This document shows, in pieces, positions 12,260-30,961 of a DNA stretch of 32,537 nt. Position numbers and translations under genes: made by a program. Under the pieces are notes generated by a model. The model saw only the letters and a list, made by a program, of their open reading frames with translations. It was not told the DNA's origin and ran no database searches. Position 1 is the stretch's first letter; every line of letters begins with the position of its first letter. Source of the DNA: an uncultured Muribaculaceae bacterium (GTDB lineage Bacteria; Bacillota_I; Bacilli_A; RF39; UBA660). The DNA lies in contig CAZIDO010000003.1 in assembly GCA_964538005.1 (NCBI GenBank), positions 1-32,537 on the forward strand, given 5' to 3'.

Positions 12260-12960
12260 TTAATTTTTATTAATAAGTCTTACTATATAACTAGAAATAT
12301 TAGCTGGTAAGACAAAATATGAACATTGAATGATAGAATCTGTATTTTGATGCGGATATACTATAACTTTTCCAGATAAACTTATATTTATTCTCCCGAC
12401 AGTTTTATATATCGGATAATTGTCAAAATAAATATTTACTATAATTTCCTCATTTCTGAATTCTTCTCTTATCTGTTGTTCACAATCAGTGCTATCTCTT
12501 AACAAACTTTTAAATTGATTTGTTATTTGTTTATCTGTTATTTTTATATTTTTATTTTATTTATTTTCTAAAACTATTGTTGTGTTTTTTCCATATATAT
12601 TTGGTAATTGGATACCCTTTTTCATTAGAAAATGTTTATCAGATAATGAATTATAATTAATTTGTATAAAGTTTACTGCTGAATCGTTTTCATAAATTGC
12701 TATTTTAGTATTTGTTCTTTGATATGAAACAGTTTCTAAATCAATGGGGGAACTATCTGCATAAGCTTTATCTGTTTTTATAATTTTTCCCACAGGATGC
12801 CAATACAATGCTTCTTCATATACTTCTCCATTATAGTACGCATATTTATAGTTATCTTTTATAAACGAAAACGCTATTATCCAAAAAAATAAATATATCC
12901 CTATCGTTATAATAAGAGTTCCAGTCCCAGCAATTATTATAGTTTTTTTATTTTTTTCAT
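12260..12960 (-). pseudogene. Decayed small membrane-anchored protein gene (one A-run frameshift plus one in-frame TAA)
   Basis: The ATG at 12960 reads MKKIKKL then stops. The -1 frame is open from there (…KKTIIIAGTGTLIITIGIYLFFWIIAFSF…, a TM anchor) into track ORF 12557-12808. That ORF and 12260-12505 share a frame and are split by a single TAA (12557-12559). Neither downstream piece has an ATG or SD of its own. Confidence 0.45.
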
Positions 12961-13010: not shown

Positions 13011-13613
13011 TTATGGTATAAAATAATTTGTTCTTATTCCATACTTTTCAAATAAAAATTTTCTATTTTCATTTGTCAGACCTTTTAAAACATTTGGCAT
13101 CTGTTCCACTATCTTTTCATATAAGTTATTTTTACTCACTGAAAGGTCAAGTGGTTTTTTTGAATCTGTCAGCCAATTACTTATCAATTTATATTTTTTA
13201 GTTTTAGTTATAATTCCTATTTGATGTATGAAATCACCAGTACCATTTCTAACCATCAATTTTGCCTTTTTATAAATTAACAATATATCATCATTTTTAA
13301 TAAATTCTAAATTATAGATATTTACAATATAATTATCAGTTAAAATATTGAAACCGTTTTTATAAAGAACATTGTCTAATTCGTCATTAATCAATTTCTT
13401 GTTATTTAATTTTAAAAATCTATAACTTGGTAATATCCACTTTAATAGTTCACTAATAATTACTATTGACATAATAAAAATAACAACTTGTAATGCTAAG
13501 GAAAATAAAGATAACTTGAGTTGGAAAACAAGTATCAAAAATAAAAATGCTAAAAATATTTGAGAAAATTTTATTAAACTAAATTTTACATACACTTTAT
13601 TTATATTTTTCAT
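13011..13613 (-). CDS. Two-TM membrane protein; candidate immunity protein for the Rhs C-terminal toxin
   Basis: 200 aa, ATG with AGGAGA RBS, 41 nt downstream of the Rhs stop. TM hairpin approx aa 16-58, then a ~140-aa soluble domain. The immunity role is inferred from position only. Confidence 0.6.
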   Translation of the reverse strand: MKNINKVYVKFSLIKFSQIFLAFLFLILVFQLKLSLFSLALQVVIFIMSIVIISELLKWILPSYRFLKLNNKKLINDELDNVLYKNGFNILTDNYIVNIYNLEFIKNDDILLIYKKAKLMVRNGTGDFIHQIGIITKTKKYKLISNWLTDSKKPLDLSVSKNNLYEKIVEQMPNVLKGLTNENRKFLFEKYGIRTNYFIP

Positions 13614-13654
13614 ATAACGATTCTCCTGTTCAATATTAATTTATTATAAAGGCT

Positions 13655-16600
13655 TTACCGAGGAACATTATATCCAAATTTCACATGCCCACCGGCAAAG
13701 TAGTGAAAGTCATAATCAATTCCAATAAATATTTCTTCATTTGACGCCTCGATTGAAAAAATGTTTTTAATAGAAAAAGCTATACTATTACTATGTTTTG
13801 ACTCAGGACAATTAAATTGTTCTATTTCATTAATACTAATATGTTGGTCGTTAGTAGTGAAAGGATATGGATGATCATAATTATGAGTTAGTACAAATGG
13901 ACCAATGGTTACTGATAGGCAATTTTCAACTATTTGCTTTGTACCATTCACGGTTTCAACAGTGCTTATATCGTTGTATGCACTAAAAGGTATTTTGGGG
14001 TTGGATATACCAGTACCATATCCATAACTAGCAACATAATTATTTTTGTTAATAATGCTTCCGACTTTGGTAGCAGTTTTTTTCCCAATATTAACAACAC
14101 TTTTTACTGCGTTAACTACTTTCTTTACAACTTTTGCAACCTTTTTCACAACTTTTTTAGTTGTCTTTTTTATCCAATTCCATATGGCTCCACGTCCACT
14201 TGAATCTACCTTGTTTATTGGATCATTATCTACATATGCATATAAATTATTTCCTGTTAATGAATTATTTTGTATCATTACATTATCAGCATTAATAAAT
14301 CTTCCCCATTTTGGATTATAATATCTACTATTTAAATAGTATAATTTTGTTTCTTTATCATAGTAATAACTTCTATATCTAAATGGATTTATATGCGCTA
14401 CATGTTTTTCATCAATTATATCATTATTGTCTTTATTTTTTATTGATATAATGTTTCCCCAACTATCATATTGGTATTTGGCAACCAAATTATAATTGCT
14501 ATCTAGTAGTCCTATTATATCATCTTGGTTGTTTTTTAAATAATAATATAGCTTTTCATTATATTTAAATCCAATTAAATCATCTATATCATTATGTATA
14601 TAGTATATCACAGCACTACCAATATTTTCAAATATTATTTTATTCCCTTCTAAAAGGTATACAGTTTTTAAACCATTAACAACTTTACTTGTTCTAATAC
14701 CATTATTATCATATTTATAATTTATTATATAATTTGAATCTGAATATGAATTTAATTTCCTACCATTTATCCAAGATAGTGAAGCATCTCCAATTGTTAG
14801 AGGGTTACCTATTTCATCATAAGTTATTTCTTGATTATTAAATTTAGTTAATTGGTCTTTCCATTTTAAATTGTTATATTCATATATATCCTGATCAATT
14901 AAATTATCAGTACCTAGCTCAAATATTTTTTTGAAAAGTATATTACCTAAATTGTCATAAGTATATTTAACTGTCTGATTAGTTAAATAATTATCTTCAC
15001 TAATAAGTTCATTGTATTCATCATAATAATACTTATTTTCTAAAATACCATTATGATATATATGGGTTATGTTATTTAGTTTATCAAATCTATATGAAAA
15101 TTCAGCATCATTCATGGTAAACTTTTTAACTAAAGTAGATGTTCTTCTACCATTTGTAACATACTCATAATTAGTTTTAATTTTATTATCAATATTACTT
15201 GACTCTATTCTGCCTAGGTTGTCATAAGCATAATTAACTTCATTTGAATCAAAAATCATTTTAGTAAGAGCATCATCTTCATCATATATTTTTTTTACTT
15301 CTTTTGAAAAGATAGGTCCATCATATTCAATGTCTGTTATATTACTATTTATATCATATTTATATTTAATTCCAAACTCATTACTTCTATATTCAATTAA
15401 TCTTTTTCCAAGATCATATTTATAATTATAAACATCATCGTTTGATATTACTTTTAATAAATCCCCATTATTTCCATATTTAAAATTATAAGTGTTATCC
15501 ATTTTATTAATAGTTTTTACTCTATCAAATTCGTCATATTCAAAATTAATTGTTTGATTATTCCCATATATGGTTGTTAATAAATTACCATTACCTCCCT
15601 CATAGTTATTAGTAATAAGTGATATATCATCACCAATTTTAATTGATTTCGTATTTAAAAATTCATCATATATAAAATTATAATCTCTTGTTTCTTGGGT
15701 AATTTTACTTAATAGATTATTATCATTATAATTATATTCTACTTCTCTATTTCCATTTTTAATTGATATAGGTCTTCTTTTGCTATCATACTCATAATTA
15801 GTTGTTTGATTTTTAGCATTAGTAACTGATTTAGTTATTCCTGTAATTAAATCTATATCATAAGTGGTTTCATTGAGATTACTATCTGTAACACTTTTAA
15901 TAAATTTTCCATCTTCGGTATATTTCGTATACGTTTCAATGAATTCTTTCTCATTGTTGGTTTCAAAGAAAAATTCAAAACTAGAGTCTTCATCAACAAA
16001 GAACTCACCAATTAAATTTTTATCTTCTACTTTTACATATTTATTATCTTTTTTTACGGCTAATGAATAACTACCATTCTTATTTTTAATTAAAGTAAAT
16101 AATGAATTATCGCCATTAAATACGGTTAATAGTAATTCATCATTATAAATAGTAAAGTATTTATCAGGAACAAGTGAGTGACTTATTTTATAATACTCAT
16201 CTATTTTTTCTAGCTTCCATAAATCATGATGACTGCATTCTTCTTTTAATTTTATAGAGTTCATAATATTCCTTAAATATAAATTGGTTCCCTTTGCTCT
16301 TATTTTATATAATCCTTCAGTTATTTCGCCATTAATACCTTTTTTGTTTACTCTAGTTACGACTGGATTATTATTTATATCATATTTTATTTCACTACAA
16401 ATACCCATTTCTGAGATACTATTAATTAATCTGTCAGGAACATTATTGTCATATTCATACATTAATTTTTTACCTTTTGGATTAGTTGAATTTATTAGCT
16501 GATTATTTTTGTTGTATTCAAAAGAACTAACTTCCTTATTAGTACCAACTACAGTTTTTAAATTACCTTTAGTATCATAATCGTAGCCACTTGAACTTAC

Positions 16601-19600
16601 ACTTTTAAACAAAGATAAATTAGTTATATATAATTCATTTGCATCACCTTCCTGATTGAGATAAATCTTGAATTTATTATAACCCGCTTCTGTGGTATAT
16701 GATGCTGAAAAATATTGCCATTCTTCCTCACTTGGATTTAAATAAGTTATTGGTACACCGTGTTGGGTATGCCAATCATCTGGATCATTGTAAAAGATTT
16801 GAAGCCATACTGCACTACCATTAATTGCTCCTAAACCATCTGCTGAAATCCCCTTATTTTTATACCAGAATGATATTTGATATTCATCATCTTTTTCTCC
16901 ACCAATATTAAATTCTTTTGACATATATGTATCATATTCTGGATCCATTTTTATTTTTAAAGCTTTGTTACCATCTTCTAAAGTAACTACTTCGTGACGT
17001 GTTGAATCATTATCAGAACTACCATATTCCCAGTCACCTAAACCATTTTTAAAATCAGAATTTTCTAAATAATTAAAATGATTGACAACTTCTCCCTGTT
17101 CTAACTGAATATCATCCATATATGATGTTCCACTACTTGTAAAATATATTTTTAATGATAAATCACTAACTGAATCAAGAGGATAGTAAATTGTAACGTC
17201 AGTTCTATTAAACCCATCATTAATTGGTACCCACTTACCTTTTTCTTCAACTATTTTATTATCAGCATCTAAATATGAAAGACCAATTCTTACACTATTA
17301 TTGTTTTTAATAAATGCACTAAAAGTATAGTAATTGCCTTTTTTAACACTTACATTTTGGATAACTTCTTTTTCAGCTTCAGTACGAACCATTTTTAAAC
17401 TTTTTAGTCCGCTATTAGCGCATTCCTCTGATATACTCAATTCCACACCGTCGGTAGGTTGAAAATAAATATTATCTGTTTCAAAACTAATGTTTTTCAG
17501 TAAATTATTAACATATTTAACTGGTATTTTATTTGATATTAATTTATTTTTGTATTCATCGTATTCACCATATCTATGGACTGTTCCATAAGCATTAGAA
17601 ATATTATTTTTATCTTTTAAATTACTAGTGCACACAGGATTACCTTCTTCATTGAAACTAATTACTGTAGCTCTATTTTTGTTATCAATAATTGTTGTGG
17701 ATTTATTGCCATATTCAATTGTAAAATAAGCTCCATTTTGATTATTTATTCCATATTCTGTTACTTTCTTTATTTTATATGGTTTTTGTTCATAATATTC
17801 GTAATTCATACTGGTGCCATCAATATCAGTTATTTTATTTATTAAATTACTTTCATTGTAAGTAAAATAAGTATATCCCTCTAAATTTAAAATACTATTA
17901 ATTTTGCCATTAGTATAATTTAAAGTTACTGTTTTATCTGGACTGATAATTGAAATTTTATCTGTTTCATATGTTATATTTATTTTTTGATTATTAGCGT
18001 CAATTATTTCCCCAATCAAGTTATTAGAATTATAATTAATTGTAATAAAATTACCTTTTATATCTTTTATTTCAGATAAATAACCTATATTATTTCTTTT
18101 GCTAAATTTCATATTATTGCCATATTTATCTTTTAAAATATAGTAATCTGAATTTACTTCAATCTCCATATTTAAATTGTCTTCATCTTGGTAAATACCA
18201 TTTTCTTCGTAAAAATAATGTAATGTTCCATCTTCATCGAAATATTGAAGATAATTGGTAGTACCTATAGTTTCAGGCTTTATAGTTTGCCATAAATTAA
18301 ATTTATAACCAATTCCTATTCCATTATCATTATTTAAAACCACATCATTGGTATTATAATATAAGCTTAAATTAGCTGGCATTTTACCACCTATAGTTGA
18401 ACCTAGTCCAAATGCAGCAATAAGATTTCCATTATATGTATTTTCATAAACCGTACCATTATTAAATGATTGTGATTGATAGTTCATATAACTTTCTAAT
18501 CCATTTTGGTTACGATAAACTATTTGTAATCTTGGGTGAGGACTGTCACCAGTAATTGTATTATTTTTAGAATAAAATGCTGGAAGCATGTTTTGATCAT
18601 ATACTTCTTTATGAGATTTTATCATTATGCCATTATTAGGAGTTCCTGTATACCATTTTTTAACTAATGATGTTATATTCCCTCTAGAGTATGAAGGGAT
18701 AATATGGGTTGTAATAACATTACCTTCCCAAGTATATTCCTCATAACTTCTGGAACACCAAAATGCCGCCTCAATTCTCGCATCATATTTGTCATTCATA
18801 TTAGACCAATTGGCTCCGGTTTCTGTAAAATCAGTAGTTAATCGATGTACATCAACCAACTTTATACTATCTGTTCGTGGCATCAATGTATAATCAACTA
18901 AATTAATGTTAGCTTCATAGATTTGACTACCTGTTCCTATGGTCGGAAGTTCAAACTTTAAAAGGGTTCTATTTATAACATCATTGCCATTTACTTTCTC
19001 TACTCCGGCCTTTAAAATATCTTGACTATTTCTATCAACATTTGTGTCCCATGGATAAATATAAGTATCATACACATTGTTTTTAGTATCAGTTGAAATA
19101 GTTGGATCGATAATTACAGGATATAAAGTATTACTATCTTTTAACCATTCTGCATCTAAAACCAGATCAAGTTTATAGTAATCTTTCATCTTTGTTAATT
19201 TATAATTAATGTTATTATTTGTTTTATTATTAGCATCAATCATATAAGGCCCATCTAAAGTAAATAAAATTTGATTGTTTTTTAAAACAACTATGTTTTT
19301 ATTTCCAAGTTCTAAATCTAAATCAGTTTTTAATACAAAACTTAATTCGCCTATATTACCCCTATCTTTTAAAATGAAACTTTCTTTTATTTTAGTAGAA
19401 AGTATTTTATATTCTAAATCGATATTTTCAAAAACATTTTCATATTTAATTTTTGAAACAAATTTTGAAGATGTTTCTGTTAAATTTATAGGCACCCTAT
19501 TTCCATCAACTAATTCAATGCTTAAATAGTGGTTATCAATCTCAAATTTCATTAAAGTTCCTGCACTATTTTCTTTAAAATAAGTTTTGTATGAATTATT

Positions 19601-19774
19601 CTTATTAATGTAATAATTATTTTGTTTAATTAATGTATTATCAATTTCCTCATATTTTCCATCTTTTATAAAATGAATATCGTCGGAATACATTTTAGCT
19701 ATAATAGTACCATTTTCTTGGAGAAAATGTTTTTCTTTTTTACCCCTTTTATCTAACAGTTCTATTTCTTTCAT
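13655..19774 (-). CDS. Rhs/YD-repeat polymorphic toxin, 2039 aa
   Basis: Many YD repeats (YEYDSKRRP, YAYDNLGRI, YTYDNLGNI, YKYDNNGIR, YQYDSWGNI ...). Rhs-associated core NPFRYRSYYYDKETKLYYLNSRYYNPKWGRFINAD...NLYAYVDNDPINKVDSSGR at aa 1796-1861. DNRLRE-like N-terminal module (…VINRTLLKFELP…). 178-aa variable C-terminus. Confidence 0.95.
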   Translation of the reverse strand: MKEIELLDKRGKKEKHFLQENGTIIAKMYSDDIHFIKDGKYEEIDNTLIKQNNYYINKNNSYKTYFKENSAGTLMKFEIDNHYLSIELVDGNRVPINLTETSSKFVSKIKYENVFENIDLEYKILSTKIKESFILKDRGNIGELSFVLKTDLDLELGNKNIVVLKNNQILFTLDGPYMIDANNKTNNNINYKLTKMKDYYKLDLVLDAEWLKDSNTLYPVIIDPTISTDTKNNVYDTYIYPWDTNVDRNSQDILKAGVEKVNGNDVINRTLLKFELPTIGTGSQIYEANINLVDYTLMPRTDSIKLVDVHRLTTDFTETGANWSNMNDKYDARIEAAFWCSRSYEEYTWEGNVITTHIIPSYSRGNITSLVKKWYTGTPNNGIMIKSHKEVYDQNMLPAFYSKNNTITGDSPHPRLQIVYRNQNGLESYMNYQSQSFNNGTVYENTYNGNLIAAFGLGSTIGGKMPANLSLYYNTNDVVLNNDNGIGIGYKFNLWQTIKPETIGTTNYLQYFDEDGTLHYFYEENGIYQDEDNLNMEIEVNSDYYILKDKYGNNMKFSKRNNIGYLSEIKDIKGNFITINYNSNNLIGEIIDANNQKINITYETDKISIISPDKTVTLNYTNGKINSILNLEGYTYFTYNESNLINKITDIDGTSMNYEYYEQKPYKIKKVTEYGINNQNGAYFTIEYGNKSTTIIDNKNRATVISFNEEGNPVCTSNLKDKNNISNAYGTVHRYGEYDEYKNKLISNKIPVKYVNNLLKNISFETDNIYFQPTDGVELSISEECANSGLKSLKMVRTEAEKEVIQNVSVKKGNYYTFSAFIKNNNSVRIGLSYLDADNKIVEEKGKWVPINDGFNRTDVTIYYPLDSVSDLSLKIYFTSSGTSYMDDIQLEQGEVVNHFNYLENSDFKNGLGDWEYGSSDNDSTRHEVVTLEDGNKALKIKMDPEYDTYMSKEFNIGGEKDDEYQISFWYKNKGISADGLGAINGSAVWLQIFYNDPDDWHTQHGVPITYLNPSEEEWQYFSASYTTEAGYNKFKIYLNQEGDANELYITNLSLFKSVSSSGYDYDTKGNLKTVVGTNKEVSSFEYNKNNQLINSTNPKGKKLMYEYDNNVPDRLINSISEMGICSEIKYDINNNPVVTRVNKKGINGEITEGLYKIRAKGTNLYLRNIMNSIKLKEECSHHDLWKLEKIDEYYKISHSLVPDKYFTIYNDELLLTVFNGDNSLFTLIKNKNGSYSLAVKKDNKYVKVEDKNLIGEFFVDEDSSFEFFFETNNEKEFIETYTKYTEDGKFIKSVTDSNLNETTYDIDLITGITKSVTNAKNQTTNYEYDSKRRPISIKNGNREVEYNYNDNNLLSKITQETRDYNFIYDEFLNTKSIKIGDDISLITNNYEGGNGNLLTTIYGNNQTINFEYDEFDRVKTINKMDNTYNFKYGNNGDLLKVISNDDVYNYKYDLGKRLIEYRSNEFGIKYKYDINSNITDIEYDGPIFSKEVKKIYDEDDALTKMIFDSNEVNYAYDNLGRIESSNIDNKIKTNYEYVTNGRRTSTLVKKFTMNDAEFSYRFDKLNNITHIYHNGILENKYYYDEYNELISEDNYLTNQTVKYTYDNLGNILFKKIFELGTDNLIDQDIYEYNNLKWKDQLTKFNNQEITYDEIGNPLTIGDASLSWINGRKLNSYSDSNYIINYKYDNNGIRTSKVVNGLKTVYLLEGNKIIFENIGSAVIYYIHNDIDDLIGFKYNEKLYYYLKNNQDDIIGLLDSNYNLVAKYQYDSWGNIISIKNKDNNDIIDEKHVAHINPFRYRSYYYDKETKLYYLNSRYYNPKWGRFINADNVMIQNNSLTGNNLYAYVDNDPINKVDSSGRGAIWNWIKKTTKKVVKKVAKVVKKVVNAVKSVVNIGKKTATKVGSIINKNNYVASYGYGTGISNPKIPFSAYNDISTVETVNGTKQIVENCLSVTIGPFVLTHNYDHPYPFTTNDQHISINEIEQFNCPESKHSNSIAFSIKNIFSIEASNEEIFIGIDYDFHYFAGGHVKFGYNVPR

Positions 19775-21166
19775 TTATAACACTCTTTTCCACATATAAA
19801 CAACTAAATATGGCGGCATATTACCAGCGGCCCCAGTTCCTGTAGTTCCGGAAGTGCTAGCATTAGTAGTTATACTATGGCTATGGTCACCACTGTTTTC
19901 AGTGTAACTCATTTGACTATAATCACCATTGGCTGATCCTGGTGCGGTAATGCATCTCCAATTTACTTGAACTCCAGAACCATAAGTAGATGTTCTCCTT
20001 GATGTAATATGACTATGATCCCCACTATTTTGGGCAGTACCACTTAATGCTGGAATAGTGTGCGCATGCGTTTGTAATTCAGCACTTCCACCAGTTGTAC
20101 CATTTGCATATGTCCCTCCAGCACCTAATAAAAATCTGTCTTTAATTTGTTCCCAGGTTCCACCAAATAAAACTGTTGGATTTGTATTATCAACTGACAT
20201 ATAAATACTGCCTATTGGATATATCGTTCCTAGTTTTTCATTTATTAAGTTTTGGACATCGGCAACTGTCATCGTTCCACCGGCATCACCTTTTTCACCT
20301 TTTGGTAATACCAAATTTAATACTTGACTCGGACTATCACCGGTAATCGTTGCACTCGCTTCATCACCATGAGAAACAGTTCCAATAATTAAATTGTTGG
20401 CTGGCCCAATATCACCTTTTATTCCCTGGTCACCTTTAGCGCCTTTTAGTGGATTAAATACTGTAAGTCTTGATCCCTTAGCAAACTGTATTTGGCTATC
20501 ATCTAGTGATAAACTTATTGAATTAATATTATCAAAAGTTTGGGCAAATACACCACCACCAAACCATATTGACTGTCCTCCACCAACCGTTCGATAAAAT
20601 TTTAAAGTATAATTCACTTTTTTCTCTCCGTTAGGGTTTTCAGATATATATAATCGTCCTTCGGCAATTACTGGAAATTCATTGTTTGGTCCATTAGTCT
20701 GCAAAAATTCACTTATATCATCACCGCTTTGAACATAATTGAATCTTGAAGTTAAAGTACCGTTTCCATATATATTTCCACTGGCATTTATGTAACTATG
20801 ATGGTATCCAGTTGTTTGGTCGTTTATTTTTATTTTTATATCTGTAGCTATAGTTGAATTTGTATATCCTATAGCAATAAATTCATATACTCCTCCTTCA
20901 TTTAAAGCATCTAAATTGTTTATTTTTATTATTGGTAAATTATTTTCTAAAATAACTTCACCTGCTACATTTGTTTGAATTTTAGATGTAATACTATTTA
21001 CAATCAAATTACCTTCACTATCTAAACTAAATTTATTATTATTTGAAGTAATACAATCAACACTTGCATTGTTAACCTCTAAATTAAGTTTATCTTCAGT
21101 TTTAGTAAACGCATCTTTAAAATAAATATCATCTAAAGTAAATTCATTATTATTTTCTATATTCAT
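19775..21166 (-). CDS. Phage tail-fibre-like protein with collagen Gly-X-Y tracts, HxH motifs and a tail-collar-type C-terminus
   Basis: GAKGDQGIKGDIGP and GEKGDAGG. C-terminal YPIGSIYMS...LFGGTWEQIKDRFLLGAG...THAHT...SGDHSH (x2)...NMPPYLVVYMWKR. The stop TAA (19775-19777) directly abuts the Rhs ATG. ATG at 21166 preferred; a GTG at 21175 is the track start. Confidence 0.85.
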   Translation of the reverse strand: MNIENNNEFTLDDIYFKDAFTKTEDKLNLEVNNASVDCITSNNNKFSLDSEGNLIVNSITSKIQTNVAGEVILENNLPIIKINNLDALNEGGVYEFIAIGYTNSTIATDIKIKINDQTTGYHHSYINASGNIYGNGTLTSRFNYVQSGDDISEFLQTNGPNNEFPVIAEGRLYISENPNGEKKVNYTLKFYRTVGGGQSIWFGGGVFAQTFDNINSISLSLDDSQIQFAKGSRLTVFNPLKGAKGDQGIKGDIGPANNLIIGTVSHGDEASATITGDSPSQVLNLVLPKGEKGDAGGTMTVADVQNLINEKLGTIYPIGSIYMSVDNTNPTVLFGGTWEQIKDRFLLGAGGTYANGTTGGSAELQTHAHTIPALSGTAQNSGDHSHITSRRTSTYGSGVQVNWRCITAPGSANGDYSQMSYTENSGDHSHSITTNASTSGTTGTGAAGNMPPYLVVYMWKRVL

Positions 21167-21203
21167 TGTTTTCACAACCTTTCTTTTAAATTATTAATCC
21201 TTC

Positions 21204-21250
21204 AAAAAAGAAGAATATAACGAAAGAGATTTTTCCCTTTCACTATATTC
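21204..21250 (-). terminator. Strong intrinsic terminator between the HTH gene and the fibre-Rhs genes
   Basis: Minus strand GAATATAGTGAAAGGGA-AAAA-TCTCTTTCGTTATATTC: 17-bp stem including 3 G.U pairs, followed by TTCTTTTTT. Confidence 0.65.
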
Positions 21251-21254
21251 CTCA

Positions 21255-21737
21255 CTAAAACACGTTTTTTGTAGTTTCAATTTTATGTGTTAATAATTTT
21301 TTTAATTTCTTCAAACCAATATCTATACTAAATTTTACAGCTCTAGGTGTACAACCATCAATTTTGGCAATTTCTTTTAAAGTCATATTTTCAAAATAAT
21401 ACATTTTTATTCTTTCCTTTTGGATAATGGGTAAAAGATCTATTGCTTTTTCCAATTCTTCTTTTACTATTTTTTTTACCACTTCTTCTTCCAAATTGGA
21501 ACGATTTTCTTTATTATCAACATTATTATTGATGTGTTCGATATGGCGCTCATATTTATTCATTGCTGACTTATCTTCTAATTCAAAGACATTAAAAACA
21601 TTATATATTTCTTTTTTTACCTCAACAGTACATTTAATTCCTCTACCATCAATAAACTCTACAAAATATTTATTTTCATGATAATTAATGGTATAGGGAT
21701 TATCTCTATGTTTCCTTCTTTTCGGGGTGATATTCAT
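21255..21737 (-). CDS. Sigma-70 region-4-type HTH DNA-binding protein (no region 2)
   Basis: C-terminus LPIIQKERIKMYYFENMTLKEIAKIDGCTPRAVKFSIDIGLKKLKKLL is a region-4 HTH. The N-terminal ...YFVEFIDGRGIKCTVEVKKEIYNVF...ERHIEH pattern recalls sigma-like proteins of Firmicutes mobile elements. RBS AGGAGGG. Confidence 0.7.
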   Translation of the reverse strand: MNITPKRRKHRDNPYTINYHENKYFVEFIDGRGIKCTVEVKKEIYNVFNVFELEDKSAMNKYERHIEHINNNVDNKENRSNLEEEVVKKIVKEELEKAIDLLPIIQKERIKMYYFENMTLKEIAKIDGCTPRAVKFSIDIGLKKLKKLLTHKIETTKNVF

Positions 21738-21744
21738 TTTATCC

Positions 21745-21768
21745 CTCCTACTATCTGATATGTAGGAG
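21745..21768 (-). promoter_or_regulatory. Hairpin sequestering the Shine-Dalgarno of the HTH gene
   Basis: Minus strand CTCCTAC-(10 nt)-GTAGGAG; the 3' arm is part of the SD GTAGGAGGG located 5 nt before the ATG. Confidence 0.35.
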
Positions 21769-21877
21769 AAAATTATTTGCTTGTTTTGTCGTACTAGTAT
21801 TGGTTTTATAATCTATTTAAAATTTTTGATTTCTAGATTTTCCCACAATAAAAGTCAAAAAAACTATCAAACGATAG

Positions 21878-29102: not shown

Positions 29103-29130
29103 AAAAAAGAAGAATAGCATTCTATTCTTC
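29103..29130 (-). terminator. Intrinsic terminator of the holin gene
   Basis: Minus strand GAAGAATAG-AATG-CTATTCTTC (9-bp stem; the TAG stop lies inside the 5' arm), followed by TTTTTT. Confidence 0.75.
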
Positions 29131-29511
29131 CGTATCTTTTTTATTTAAATTATTGAGTACTGTTTTTATTTGTTCAGGAATTGGTAAGCCTAGTTCTACC
29201 GCGTTTTCTATTATTGATATGCCTTCATTAACAATGTAAAAAACAATTGCTAAATAACGGAGATCTGTAGCTCCAAAGACATTATCTAAGCTTACAGCGA
29301 TCCCAACGACGAAAAATACTAATATTTTCTTAAATATACCCCGAAATCCTACTTCACTAGATACTTCGTGGTTTGCTATTGCTTTCATTATTCCGGTCAA
29401 ATAATCCATTATTGTAAATGTTATTAACGTCATTAATAACATATCAAATCCGCCAAGGAAATGACCTAGTACACCACCAATTACTGATATTATCACTTTA
29501 ATTGTTGTCAA
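29122..29511 (-). CDS. Holin, toxin secretion/phage lysis family (Phage_holin_4 / TcdE-like)
   Basis: 129 aa, 3 TM. MDYLTGIMKAI...SSEVGFRGIFKKILVF...IVNEGISIIENAVELGLPIP is the family signature. TTG start with GAAGGAAG RBS. Confidence 0.8.
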   Translation of the reverse strand: MTTIKVIISVIGGVLGHFLGGFDMLLMTLITFTIMDYLTGIMKAIANHEVSSEVGFRGIFKKILVFFVVGIAVSLDNVFGATDLRYLAIVFYIVNEGISIIENAVELGLPIPEQIKTVLNNLNKKDTEE

Positions 29512-29703: not shown

Positions 29704-29780
29704 GGGGAATTAGCTCAGTTGGCTAGAGTACCTGCTTTGCACGCAGGGGGTCAAGGGTTCGAATCCCTTATTCTCCACCA
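29704..29780 (+). tRNA. tRNA-Ala (anticodon UGC), CCA encoded
   Basis: Cloverleaf readable by eye. Acceptor GGGGAAT/ATTCTCC with the G3:U70 Ala identity pair, anticodon loop CTTTGCA, T-arm GGGTTCGAATCCC, 3' ACCA. Confidence 0.95.
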
Positions 29781-29881: not shown

Positions 29882-30961
29882 TTATGCTAAAGCATCGAGG
29901 ACAGCAATAGCTTTATCCTCGTCGCCTGGTAGCATATGTGAATATGTATTGAGTATTAGCTCAATATCAGAGTGTCCTATGCGTTTCGCAATAACAGTTA
30001 TAGGAACACCCTTTGATAATAATAAAGATACATGGCTATGTCTAAAGTCGTGTATTTTTATTTTATTAACACCAGCTAGATTACAGTAGTAATCTTTTTT
30101 TCTTGCCACGGTTGTCGTTGCTAATGGATTTAGACAACCAAATATATACCAACTGTCATCAAATTCTACAAACTTATGGCACTTTCCTTTATATTCGCAT
30201 AGTCTTGATAGTAAATGTCTATCAAGTTTAACTTTCCGATATGACATTTCCGTTTTAGGACTATTAATCATATTTTTTCCATCAACCTTCCTTCTTGTTA
30301 GGGTTTTATTTATAAGTAAATAGTTATCATGTAAATCATTCCAAGTAAGAGCCAAGCACTCGCCCTGCCTTATACCAATTAAATATAAAACTTCAAAAAA
30401 TAGTTTATACATATCATTATCAATTACACTAATAAATTTCTTAAATTCTTCATAAGACCAAATATTATATTCCTTTGGTATTTCATCACGTTTAGAAAAA
30501 TTACCAACTTGACTAGCAACATTAACCTTAAGCCCGTAAAATTTAACTGCATAATTTAGCATTGTTCTTACTGCTCCATGAATTGCACTTTTATATTTAT
30601 AGCAATAGCCTTTATCATCTAGTTGTTTTTGCCATCTTACATATAATGAAGCTGTAATTTTTTTTAGCTCATAATCTTTAAAATACGGTAATGCATGTAT
30701 TTCAATACAGTTTTTAACACTTCTAAATGAATTATATTTTAACTTCGTTTCCATATGTTCCTTATAAATTTCCCACAGTTTTCCAAATGTAATATCACAA
30801 TACCCATCTTTGGTAGCTATTACAAAATCTCTTTCTGCCTCAATAGCATCTCTTTTTGTCCTAAAGTCACCATTTTGGTATTGTTTTCTATTGCCAAAAC
30901 TATCAGTAGCATATACACGATAGTACCAATGTTTGGATTTCTTATCTTGATATGCTGGCAT
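29882..30961 (-). CDS. int: Tyrosine site-specific recombinase (phage-type integrase)
   Basis: N-terminal SAM-like arm-binding region. Catalytic region with GIRQGECLALTW (Arg), HDFRHSHVSLLL (His-x-x-Arg) and GHSDIELILNTYSH (His...Tyr). Lies next to the 3' end of a tRNA gene. Confidence 0.9.
   Translation of the reverse strand: MPAYQDKKSKHWYYRVYATDSFGNRKQYQNGDFRTKRDAIEAERDFVIATKDGYCDITFGKLWEIYKEHMETKLKYNSFRSVKNCIEIHALPYFKDYELKKITASLYVRWQKQLDDKGYCYKYKSAIHGAVRTMLNYAVKFYGLKVNVASQVGNFSKRDEIPKEYNIWSYEEFKKFISVIDNDMYKLFFEVLYLIGIRQGECLALTWNDLHDNYLLINKTLTRRKVDGKNMINSPKTEMSYRKVKLDRHLLSRLCEYKGKCHKFVEFDDSWYIFGCLNPLATTTVARKKDYYCNLAGVNKIKIHDFRHSHVSLLLSKGVPITVIAKRIGHSDIELILNTYSHMLPGDEDKAIAVLDALA

Follow-up and report, generated by a model that had tools for sequence, protein, structure and literature searches.

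We describe here a five-gene cassette, built around a very large Rhs protein and a phage fibre-like partner, in a 32,537-nucleotide (nt) stretch of DNA (contig CAZIDO010000003.1, hereafter 'the window') from an uncultured bacterium; the SpoIVA and SpoVIF genes in the window identify the host as a spore-forming member of the Bacillota. The list of open reading frames (ORFs) places the whole cassette on the minus strand, in the order and at the positions given in the initial annotation of this DNA: a sigma-like regulator (160 amino acids; 21255-21737), a terminator-like hairpin with a T-run (21210-21253), the fibre-like gene (463 amino acids; 19775-21166), the gene for the Rhs polymorphic toxin (2039 amino acids; 13655-19774) and a gene for a 200-amino acid protein with two transmembrane (TM) helices (13011-13613). 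The same annotation had correctly noted how tightly these genes are packed: the Rhs ATG begins at the base directly after the fibre TAA, and the two-TM gene starts 41 nt after the Rhs stop codon.

The Rhs protein matches the RHS_repeat, Rhs_assc_core and DNRLRE profiles, and opens with an all-beta domain (residues 1-240; 19055-19774, minus strand), followed by a DNRLRE/CBM96 carbohydrate-binding module (residues 243-418; 18521-19048, minus; NF033679 at 1.7e-19); two more jelly-roll-type modules are also present. The shell repeats are recognised by RHS_repeat (PF05593 at 5.7e-18) and TIGR01643, NF048003 and NTTRR-F1 also match the protein, and the allele of a sister strain (locus L005; loci of relatives are given L-numbers throughout) is matched by PF25023, TEN_YD-shell. 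The Rhs-associated core (residues 1769-1860; 14195-14470, minus) matches TIGR03696 at 3.9e-18, across model positions 1-75 of 76, and ends in ...YVDNDPINKVDSSG, which is expected to be the site of autoproteolysis. Beyond this cleavage motif lies a variable C-terminal toxin domain of 179 amino acids (13658-14194, minus). With YD/RHS shell repeats, a core with its cleavage motif, a variable C-terminal domain, and the downstream immunity gene and orphan modules described below, the locus has, at the level of sequence, every hallmark of an Rhs polymorphic toxin.

For the fibre-like gene, we favour ATG 21166 over GTG 21175 as the start codon, because the same ribosome-binding site (RBS) and an MN... 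start are found in relatives. Its product opens with a conserved motif, continues with a middle domain rich in beta structure and short runs of GXY triplets, and ends in a C-terminal Gp10_C tip (PF21939 at 3.6e-18) that carries HxH motifs. It also matches PHROG tail families; the profile of the family matches T4 gp10 (2fkk) and the phage structural protein 7z47_I in the PDB, and the C-terminal domain shares 40-43% identity with proteins annotated as (putative) antireceptors in the Lactobacillus delbrueckii phages LL-Ku, phiLdb and Ld3. An earlier description as a collagen/HxH tail-fibre-like protein therefore stands as regards both the likeness to tail fibres and the HxH motifs, but not the collagen, which amounts to just ~5+2 GXY triplets. 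A fold search with the fibre model was set aside as uninformative because the model is too poor (pLDDT, the predicted local distance difference test score, of 60), none of the best PDB matches having fallen below an E-value of 0.04.

The N-terminal motif of the fibre (residues 6-62; 20981-21151, minus; ~55 amino acids) was defined from invariant alignment columns and has the consensus DDIYFKDAFTK...NKFSLD..GNLxVNSI. It is found in 45 of 46 Rhs-linked fibres and is absent from the Gp10_C-only proteins checked among fibre homologs, one of which (P0079, in L063) sits in a genuine siphophage tail module. Motif and tip are constant across loci, the middle domain and a 165-amino acid N-domain being optional; we regard the motif as a candidate adaptor to the Rhs protein.

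The pairing of the two genes is strongly conserved. A search of one genome per GTDB species, made with aligned sequences of the first 250 Rhs residues, yielded 46 loci, nearly all from uncultured 'Bacilli bacterium' metagenome-assembled genomes from the guts of mouse, rabbit, sheep, reindeer and human. Upstream fibres were called by hidden Markov models (HMMs) built from the first loci, and a gene with both the fibre motif and Gp10_C stands immediately 5' of the Rhs gene in 45 of the 46 species-level loci, usually across a gap of 0-30 nt and at Rhs N-terminal identities to the window of 37-56%. Approached from the fibre side, through eight homologs (41-100% identical) examined on their contigs, the picture is the same: seven bear the motif, and all seven lie directly 5' of an Rhs gene of ~2050-2130 codons, wherever that gene is complete on the contig; the eighth, which has no motif, is the protein in the siphophage tail module of L063. 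Chance juxtaposition in a single genome, which the initial annotation had put forward as the outcome that would undo its proposal, is not what is seen; since the adjacency is not unique to the window genome, the fibre-Rhs pair is a real unit, and we are confident that the locus is a module of polymorphic Rhs toxin and immunity gene to which a fibre belongs as conserved partner.

In some loci a further ORF of 118-129 amino acids, with no family match, lies between fibre and Rhs genes (L061:11224-11613 and L062:11185-11541), and gaps of like size occur in L016, L018, L019, L024, L025 and L027; this ORF, which the window does not have, may encode a further adaptor or a chaperone. Two further Gp10_C genes are found upstream in L041.

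Both partners point back to phage tails. Right from its N-terminus, the Rhs protein (residues 5-325) aligns with a protein of Bacillus phage PBC1, gp18 (25% identity, 336 columns, E 5e-18), a virion protein encoded directly after the tape-measure gene, in the distal-tail (Dit) position; phages of the PBC1 group have no recognisable Dit and carry the gp18-type protein in that place (PMC9128512). Like the Rhs protein, gp18 and its relatives in Carmen17, Wes44 and Anath (PMC9128512) combine an N-terminal beta domain with CBM96; unlike it, gp18 is a virion protein of 1063 amino acids in a complete tail module, with no Pfam RHS repeats and neither toxin nor immunity gene. An AlphaFold model of Rhs residues 1-450 (pLDDT 86.6) shows the all-beta domain followed by the CBM96 module. 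Foldseek against the PDB matched the CBM96 half alone (7vbo and 8wab, alginate- and chondroitin-binding; target-normalised TM-scores ~0.66-0.70), with no solved fold relative found for residues 1-230; against BFVD, the whole model matched A0A8S5MN12, a 1379-amino acid gut Siphoviridae protein (E 1.4e-26, TMq 0.71). We consider the homology of the Rhs N-terminal beta domain to a siphophage distal-tail protein to be real and, taking the gp18 alignment and the BFVD match together with the likeness of the fibre tip, conclude that the fibre and the front of the Rhs protein derive from phage tail-tip parts. The N-domain family is a large one (4293 representative clusters at E ≤ 1e-3), and roughly 100 of its best matches are proteins of ~2050 amino acids with the domain at residue 1. 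A Dit-like ring was considered as the fold of this domain and is unsupported, the top 50 PDB matches listed including no Dit structure.

The polymorphism of the toxin end is seen most directly in the sister strain. Between the integrase region and position 14148 (Rhs residue ~1876), L005 and the window share 97.7% identity, which breaks there, ~15 residues past the core motif and inside the first residues of the C-terminal domain. Past the break L005 has another C-terminal domain, a 237-amino acid gene and two small genes, and then an orphan Rhs fragment, 99% identical to the window's last ~480 codons, together with an identical copy of the 200-amino acid gene. This displacement as an orphan module identifies the 200-amino acid two-TM protein as the predicted cognate immunity partner of the window toxin domain; similarly, in L017 a homologous toxin domain is followed by a homologous 196-amino acid gene. 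Comparison of translations further shows that two TTG-start ORFs of the window, at 12557-12808 and 12260-12505, are fragments of a decayed homolog of the L005 237-amino acid immunity gene (12260-12808, minus strand), and this decayed orphan immunity gene moves the boundary of the cassette out to ~12260.

Across the relatives, 36 C-terminal domains of 155-245 amino acids fall into 23 sequence clusters, with domains homologous to that of the window in L004, L017, L030, L034, L040, L045 and L048; a word-indexed homolog search with the window toxin domain returned one weak match. The window domain comprises a Lys-rich amphipathic helix (AIWNWIKKTTKKVVKKVAKVVKKVV) and then a beta-rich domain. Nearly all of the toxin domains listed open with a helix that is either hydrophobic and Gly/Ala-rich or Lys-rich and amphipathic, straight after the cleavage motif and often succeeded by a Ser/Lys-rich linker; this shared leading helix could be a pre-toxin element for membrane insertion or translocation. 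The two TM helices of the immunity protein suggest, in turn, that the window toxin may act at the membrane.

In many relatives the cassette runs on into lysis genes. After the immunity gene(s), L001-L004, L009-L014 and L061 encode a ~100-amino acid single-TM protein of phrog_4105, a holin (PF09682 in L004, PHROG holin families elsewhere in that group) and a GH25 or M23 hydrolase; in other species the holin is of PF05105 and its companion enzyme of M23 or Amidase_2, the two being placed before or after the core genes. Of the 28 species-level loci having ~4 kb or more of downstream sequence, at least 18 contain lysis genes of this kind, which in phage-type cassettes are a recognised release route; in several of the lysis-negative loci the downstream space is occupied by orphan Rhs arrays. 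The initial annotation had seen a self-contained cassette with no secretion machinery, and this is true of the reduced copy in the window but not of the system, most relatives carrying both holin and hydrolase. Upstream of the cassette in L044 (864-5234), orphan fragments of the Rhs C-terminus and a holin gene lie in among three phrog_4105-type genes; here a lysis-module gene seems to have been duplicated along with orphan toxin modules.

The sole lysis-type gene of the window is a lone Phage_holin_4_1 gene (PF05105, 1.2e-39) at 29122-29511, 7.4 kb upstream of the cassette, which adjoins an ABC transporter and is 24-29% identical to the cassette holins of relatives; as the missing release gene it is a possible but unsupported candidate. 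Next to it lie a tRNA gene at 29704-29777 and, at 29882-30961, a gene for a tyrosine integrase, with the holin on the chromosomal side of the tRNA gene, and the integrated element seems to run rightward past the end of the window.

Turning to control of the operon, the regulator matches Sigma70_r4_2 (PF08281, 1.7e-8) and Sigma70_r4 (PF04545, 4e-6) in Pfam, as well as phrog_11138, with a TIGR02937 match restricted to its C-terminal half; its closest solved relative in the PDB is region 4 of FliA (5.5e-5). Sigma region 2 was not detected in it by sequence, leaving region 4 and a preceding linker only, so that the regulator is, as first proposed, a region-4-only protein and not a full sigma-70 factor, in which region 2 accompanies region 4. 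Roughly one in two species-level loci, as judged with a sigma HMM, has a sigma region 4 gene 5' of the fibre gene, as do nearly all fibre-side loci, the latter tally counting Sigma70_r4 matches plus ~160-amino acid genes at the same position. A second conserved gene, of ~165-180 amino acids, is found 5' of the sigma-like gene in L001 (8413-8949), L004 (8416-8913), L023 and L049, the L004 copy matching PHROG 248 ('transcriptional activator') at 2.8e-7; the window is without this gene, and some cassettes may therewith have two phage-type regulators.

RNA folding does return the hairpin that was proposed to sequester the Shine-Dalgarno sequence of the regulator (10 bp, pairing GGAGG; approximately 21742-21771, minus strand), but with a stability (-12 kcal/mol) just modestly beyond that of shuffled sequences (z = -2.0), which is weak on its own. 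The long-stem terminator is a firmer feature. It lies directly 3' of the regulator (21253-21210), has 20 pairs including G-U (a 17-bp stem in the first description) and is the sole such site in 12.5 kb scanned. It recurs after the sigma gene in ~20 loci, for example at L001:9651-9690, with carriers that include L001, L004, L015, L023, L029-L033, L035, L036, L044, L051 and L056. The conserved sequence is AGTGAGGAATATAGTGAgAGGG ... CTCTTTCAxTATATTCCTC, and L029, L011 and L060 have GGAAACAG.TGAA, with compensatory changes across species. Since this is conservation beyond what a plain terminator needs, the hairpin may be an attenuator or a protein-binding site. A GGAATA-like box recurs ~15 nt 3' of the hairpin.

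The interval between regulator and fibre gene has a richer structure in relatives, where the hairpin terminator is followed by a conserved box (GTTCTTTGAcAATT...), then by a leader of ~200-250 nt and then by the fibre gene. The leader is conserved and apparently structured, with several hairpins showing compensatory changes (L001:9690-9960, and at the same position in L004, L015, L023, L029, L030, L036, L044, L051 and L056). Part of it matches the pemK RNA motif (Rfam RF02913) in L001 and in nine of the ten other loci tested, always between sigma and fibre genes, scoring 38-51 bits where the gathering threshold is 34.8; the pemK covariance model has no match in the window. The conserved 5' end of the motif (TATAATGATACTTC) includes a -10-like TATAAT, so its conservation may perhaps be partly at the DNA level. 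It is probable that the hairpin terminator and pemK leader together control the operon in full-length relatives. The main text of Weinberg 2017 does not mention pemK. A sigma-70-type promoter between the window terminator and the fibre start was considered and excluded, only ~35 nt being available there and the box of the relatives being deleted.

Which known delivery class, then, does the system resemble? Neither Rhs protein nor fibre has a Sec signal peptide of the kind on which WapA-type toxins depend, and as both ORFs are already maximal, with hydrophilic N-termini (that of the Rhs protein beginning MKEIELLDKRGKKEKH), no corrected start can expose one; nor did any relative's Rhs N-terminus that we read have an export signal. 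Searches of Pfam and NCBIfam revealed no LysM, SLH, LPXTG or wall-binding repeats on either protein, and no PAAR or VgrG on the Rhs protein, as would mark a type VI secretion (T6SS) effector. An LXG/WXG-like helical N-terminus, as in type VIIb secretion (T7SSb), is absent, Rhs residues 1-450 being predicted all-beta, and there are no WXG or EssC genes within the window. No TcA translocator, SpvB or beta-propeller domain of a Tc toxin is found in the Rhs protein or its window neighbours. Finally, tail tube, sheath, tape-measure and baseplate genes, which would indicate a tailocin or an extracellular contractile injection system, are missing from the window and from within 10 kb of the cassette in those loci with Pfam gene tables. 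On these points of secretion the initial annotation is borne out, as is its view that the arrangement matches no described system: we found no description of a fibre, Rhs and lysis arrangement in the literature. Rhs polymorphic toxins are themselves well known; it is their conserved linkage to a phage fibre that appears to be previously undescribed.

Several established systems offer partial parallels. Tailocins (R- and F-type pyocins, diffocins and monocins) are domesticated phage parts with a specificity fibre, regulators and a phage lysis cassette. The present system likewise has phage parts, a receptor-binding type of fibre, dedicated regulators and, in relatives' genes alone, a lysis cassette that would serve for release; it differs in having no tube, sheath, baseplate or tape measure, so that killing would be via an enzymatic or membrane-active Rhs toxin. 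Certain clostridial loci, namely TcdR/TcdE/TcdL of C. difficile and UviA/UviB-BCN5 of C. perfringens, have their own sigma factor and holin, and PF05105 (Phage_holin_4_1), the holin family of several relatives here, is presumably that of TcdE. Shared with these loci are a dedicated sigma-family regulator, a large signal-less toxin and a holin-family gene; unlike theirs, the regulator here is region 4 only and gave no match that would place it in sigma group 5, the toxin belongs to the Rhs polymorphic class, and a true peptidoglycan hydrolase is present in relatives.

WapA-type toxins (Bacillus subtilis WapA; Streptococcus suis WapA1, PMC12704120) have in common with the window locus an Rhs cage, a polymorphic toxin, downstream immunity, orphan modules and a DNRLRE (CBM96) domain N-terminal to the Rhs repeats (PMC12704120), but the present proteins have no Sec signal and no LysM or wall anchor, and the Rhs gene is paired with a fibre gene and, in most cases, accompanied by holin/lysin genes and a regulator of sigma-like type. 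How very large Gram-positive Rhs toxins, WapA included, leave the cell and find their targets is still unclear (PMC12704120). YenTc of Yersinia entomophaga, exported by type 10 secretion, also has an Rhs/YD cocoon with an autocleaved toxin and no signal peptide; its partner protein for target binding would correspond to the fibre and its holin/endolysin release genes to the lysis genes of relatives here, and its expression is confined to a subpopulation of cells (PMC10847046). In contrast to YenTc, there is here no TcA pentamer, no TcB/TcC split and no spanin, the host is Gram-positive, and the partner is a fibre; the immunity genes and orphan arrays, moreover, indicate bacterial rather than animal targets. 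By analogy, the functional likeness would be greatest to lysis-released Tc toxins (PMC10847046) and to tailocins, and the system recalls the clostridial sigma-plus-holin loci.

Synthesising these observations, we favour the reading that uncultured gut Bacilli of low GC content have an Rhs toxin system, derived from phage, associated with a fibre and lysis-released in relatives, of which the window carries a copy, and give this a probability of roughly 0.55. We propose a model for how such a system might work. Its core is a pair of co-transcribed genes, for a trimeric-fibre-type protein and a ~2050-amino acid signal-less Rhs cage; the fibre trimer would dock onto the Rhs N-domain through the conserved motif. 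We suggest that the operon would be switched on in a subpopulation of cells, which the holin and peptidoglycan hydrolase would then lyse, so freeing fibre and Rhs protein as a soluble complex. Through its fibre tip and carbohydrate-binding modules, this complex could attach to envelope or wall polymers of related, competing Gram-positive cells, whereupon the autocleaved C-terminal toxin would exit the cage, its leading hydrophobic or Lys-rich helix perhaps aiding action on, or passage across, the target membrane. We further speculate, more tentatively and at somewhat less than even odds, that this is an undescribed, tail-less, phage-derived weapon that acts at a distance: an Rhs cage mounted on a fibre by way of the ~55-amino acid motif and the tail-derived Rhs N-domain, under sigma/pemK control and released by its own holin and lysin. 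Such a weapon would stand as a fourth mode of Rhs delivery beside T6SS, Sec/WapA and Tc.

A number of observations weigh against this lysis-released, fibre-associated toxin system, whether in general or in the window. The physical partnership between fibre and Rhs protein is one that we infer, and the monomer model of the fibre is poor. Lysis genes were not found in the flanks of about one third of relatives, with ~4.5 kb of downstream sequence covered. The window has no peptidoglycan hydrolase, its fibre is without the 165-amino acid N-domain, and the conserved box and leader have been deleted, between 21166 and 21210, in the window and in its conspecifics, where the terminator hairpin and the RBS and start codon of the fibre gene remain. 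Nothing in Pfam, NCBIfam or the PDB matched the window toxin domain. In two of the four other conspecific contigs, furthermore, Rhs codon 674 carries a TAT-to-TAA nonsense change (L006:11393-13414 and L008:3361-5382; the window equivalent is at ~17753-17755); since two contigs share it, a null allele of the toxin segregates in the population, and the window-type copy may be decaying. The window copy is a reduced version of the cassette, missing leader, fibre N-domain and lysis module, and its function is less certain because of these deletions and the nonsense allele. With the leader gone, its expression, if it is active, must rely on read-through of the terminator, and its release would need another route, for instance autolysis, lysis by a prophage or the isolated holin gene at 29122-29511. 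The Rhs ORFs of L002 and L003 are similarly broken relative to that of L001.

The extreme form of this concern, that the cassette is in this genome a non-functional relic, persisting only as an immunity island, strikes us as rather unlikely. The lost leader, the lack of a lysin in the window, the nonsense allele in L006 and L008 and the decayed orphan immunity gene at 12260-12808 all speak for it, but both the window and L005 have unbroken ORFs for the Rhs protein (6.1 kb) and the fibre, strains have lately exchanged toxin modules, the RBS and start codon are kept, and fibres with no N-domain are common in other species that still keep the leader. We think it very unlikely that the cassette is wreckage of a prophage, its fibre and lysis genes being what is left of the 3' part of a late operon in decay, the Rhs gene an unrelated 'moron' lodged between them, and the fibre without a role in delivery. 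The order of fibre, cargo, holin and lysin is admittedly typical of Firmicute phages, similar pieces occur in real phage modules (PBC1 and L063), the upstream gene of L004 belongs to a PHROG 'transcriptional activator' family and integrative and conjugative element (ICE) genes lie near some loci; against this, gene order is held in 45 of 46 species at 37-56% Rhs N-terminal identity, no capsid, tape-measure or tail-tube gene lies within 10 kb (again in loci with Pfam tables), the fibre motif is confined to Rhs-linked fibres when set beside the Gp10_C-only proteins checked, 6-kb ORFs remain intact and, because the Rhs N-terminus is itself tail-derived, the Rhs gene is not foreign cargo.

Two further explanations keep the toxin functional but send it out by another door, and both seem to us improbable. 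One is a contact-dependent surface toxin of WapA type, with an unrecognised mode of export and the fibre as an adhesin on the surface of the producer. WapA is the known Gram-positive Rhs paradigm, and the DNRLRE domain stands N-terminal to the Rhs repeats in Streptococcus suis WapA too (PMC12704120); yet neither Rhs protein nor fibre has a Sec signal, LysM, SLH or LPXTG, the window has no recognisable sortase gene, SecF-like gene or further gene dedicated to export, and holin/lysin genes are linked in most relatives. The other is export by a system encoded elsewhere, be it T7SSb or a phage-tail-like particle bearing the Rhs N-domain on its tip. Our view of the genome is limited to 32.5 kb, Listeria has a T7SS-linked Rhs toxin (PMC10327511), and the Rhs N-domain is homologous to a protein in the Dit position of PBC1; set against these are the all-beta N-terminal model, with no LXG- or WXG-like helices, the lack of EssC, EsxA, sheath and tube genes in the flanks (loci with Pfam gene tables) and the lack of any Dit structure among the top 50 PDB matches listed by Foldseek.

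If the fibre-associated, lysis-released system that we favour is borne out, it would add another case of phage tail-tip parts recycled into bacterial weapons. The conserved gene set provides a testable Gram-positive Rhs route, in which lysis would serve for release and a phage receptor-binding fibre for targeting, in uncultured bacteria common in the guts of mouse, rabbit, ruminants and humans. The pemK RNA motif, so far an orphan, would gain a genetic setting of its own, and because fibres and toxin domains are swappable they could serve in engineered narrow-spectrum antibacterials.

The flanks of the cassette within the window are ordinary chromosomal genes of a low-GC spore-former, among them SpoVIF, Der, SpoIVA, RecU and PBP1. 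A role at the spore surface (exosporium, BclA-like), suggested by SpoVIF, SpoIVA and CotZ as neighbours, was rejected because the flanking genes are different in every lineage. In one of these lineages, VirB4/TraG-like ATPase and CHAP-peptidase genes lie a few kb from the cassette (L001:1-3415, L009:1-3428 and L013:1-3429), which may there be carried on, or sit beside, an ICE.

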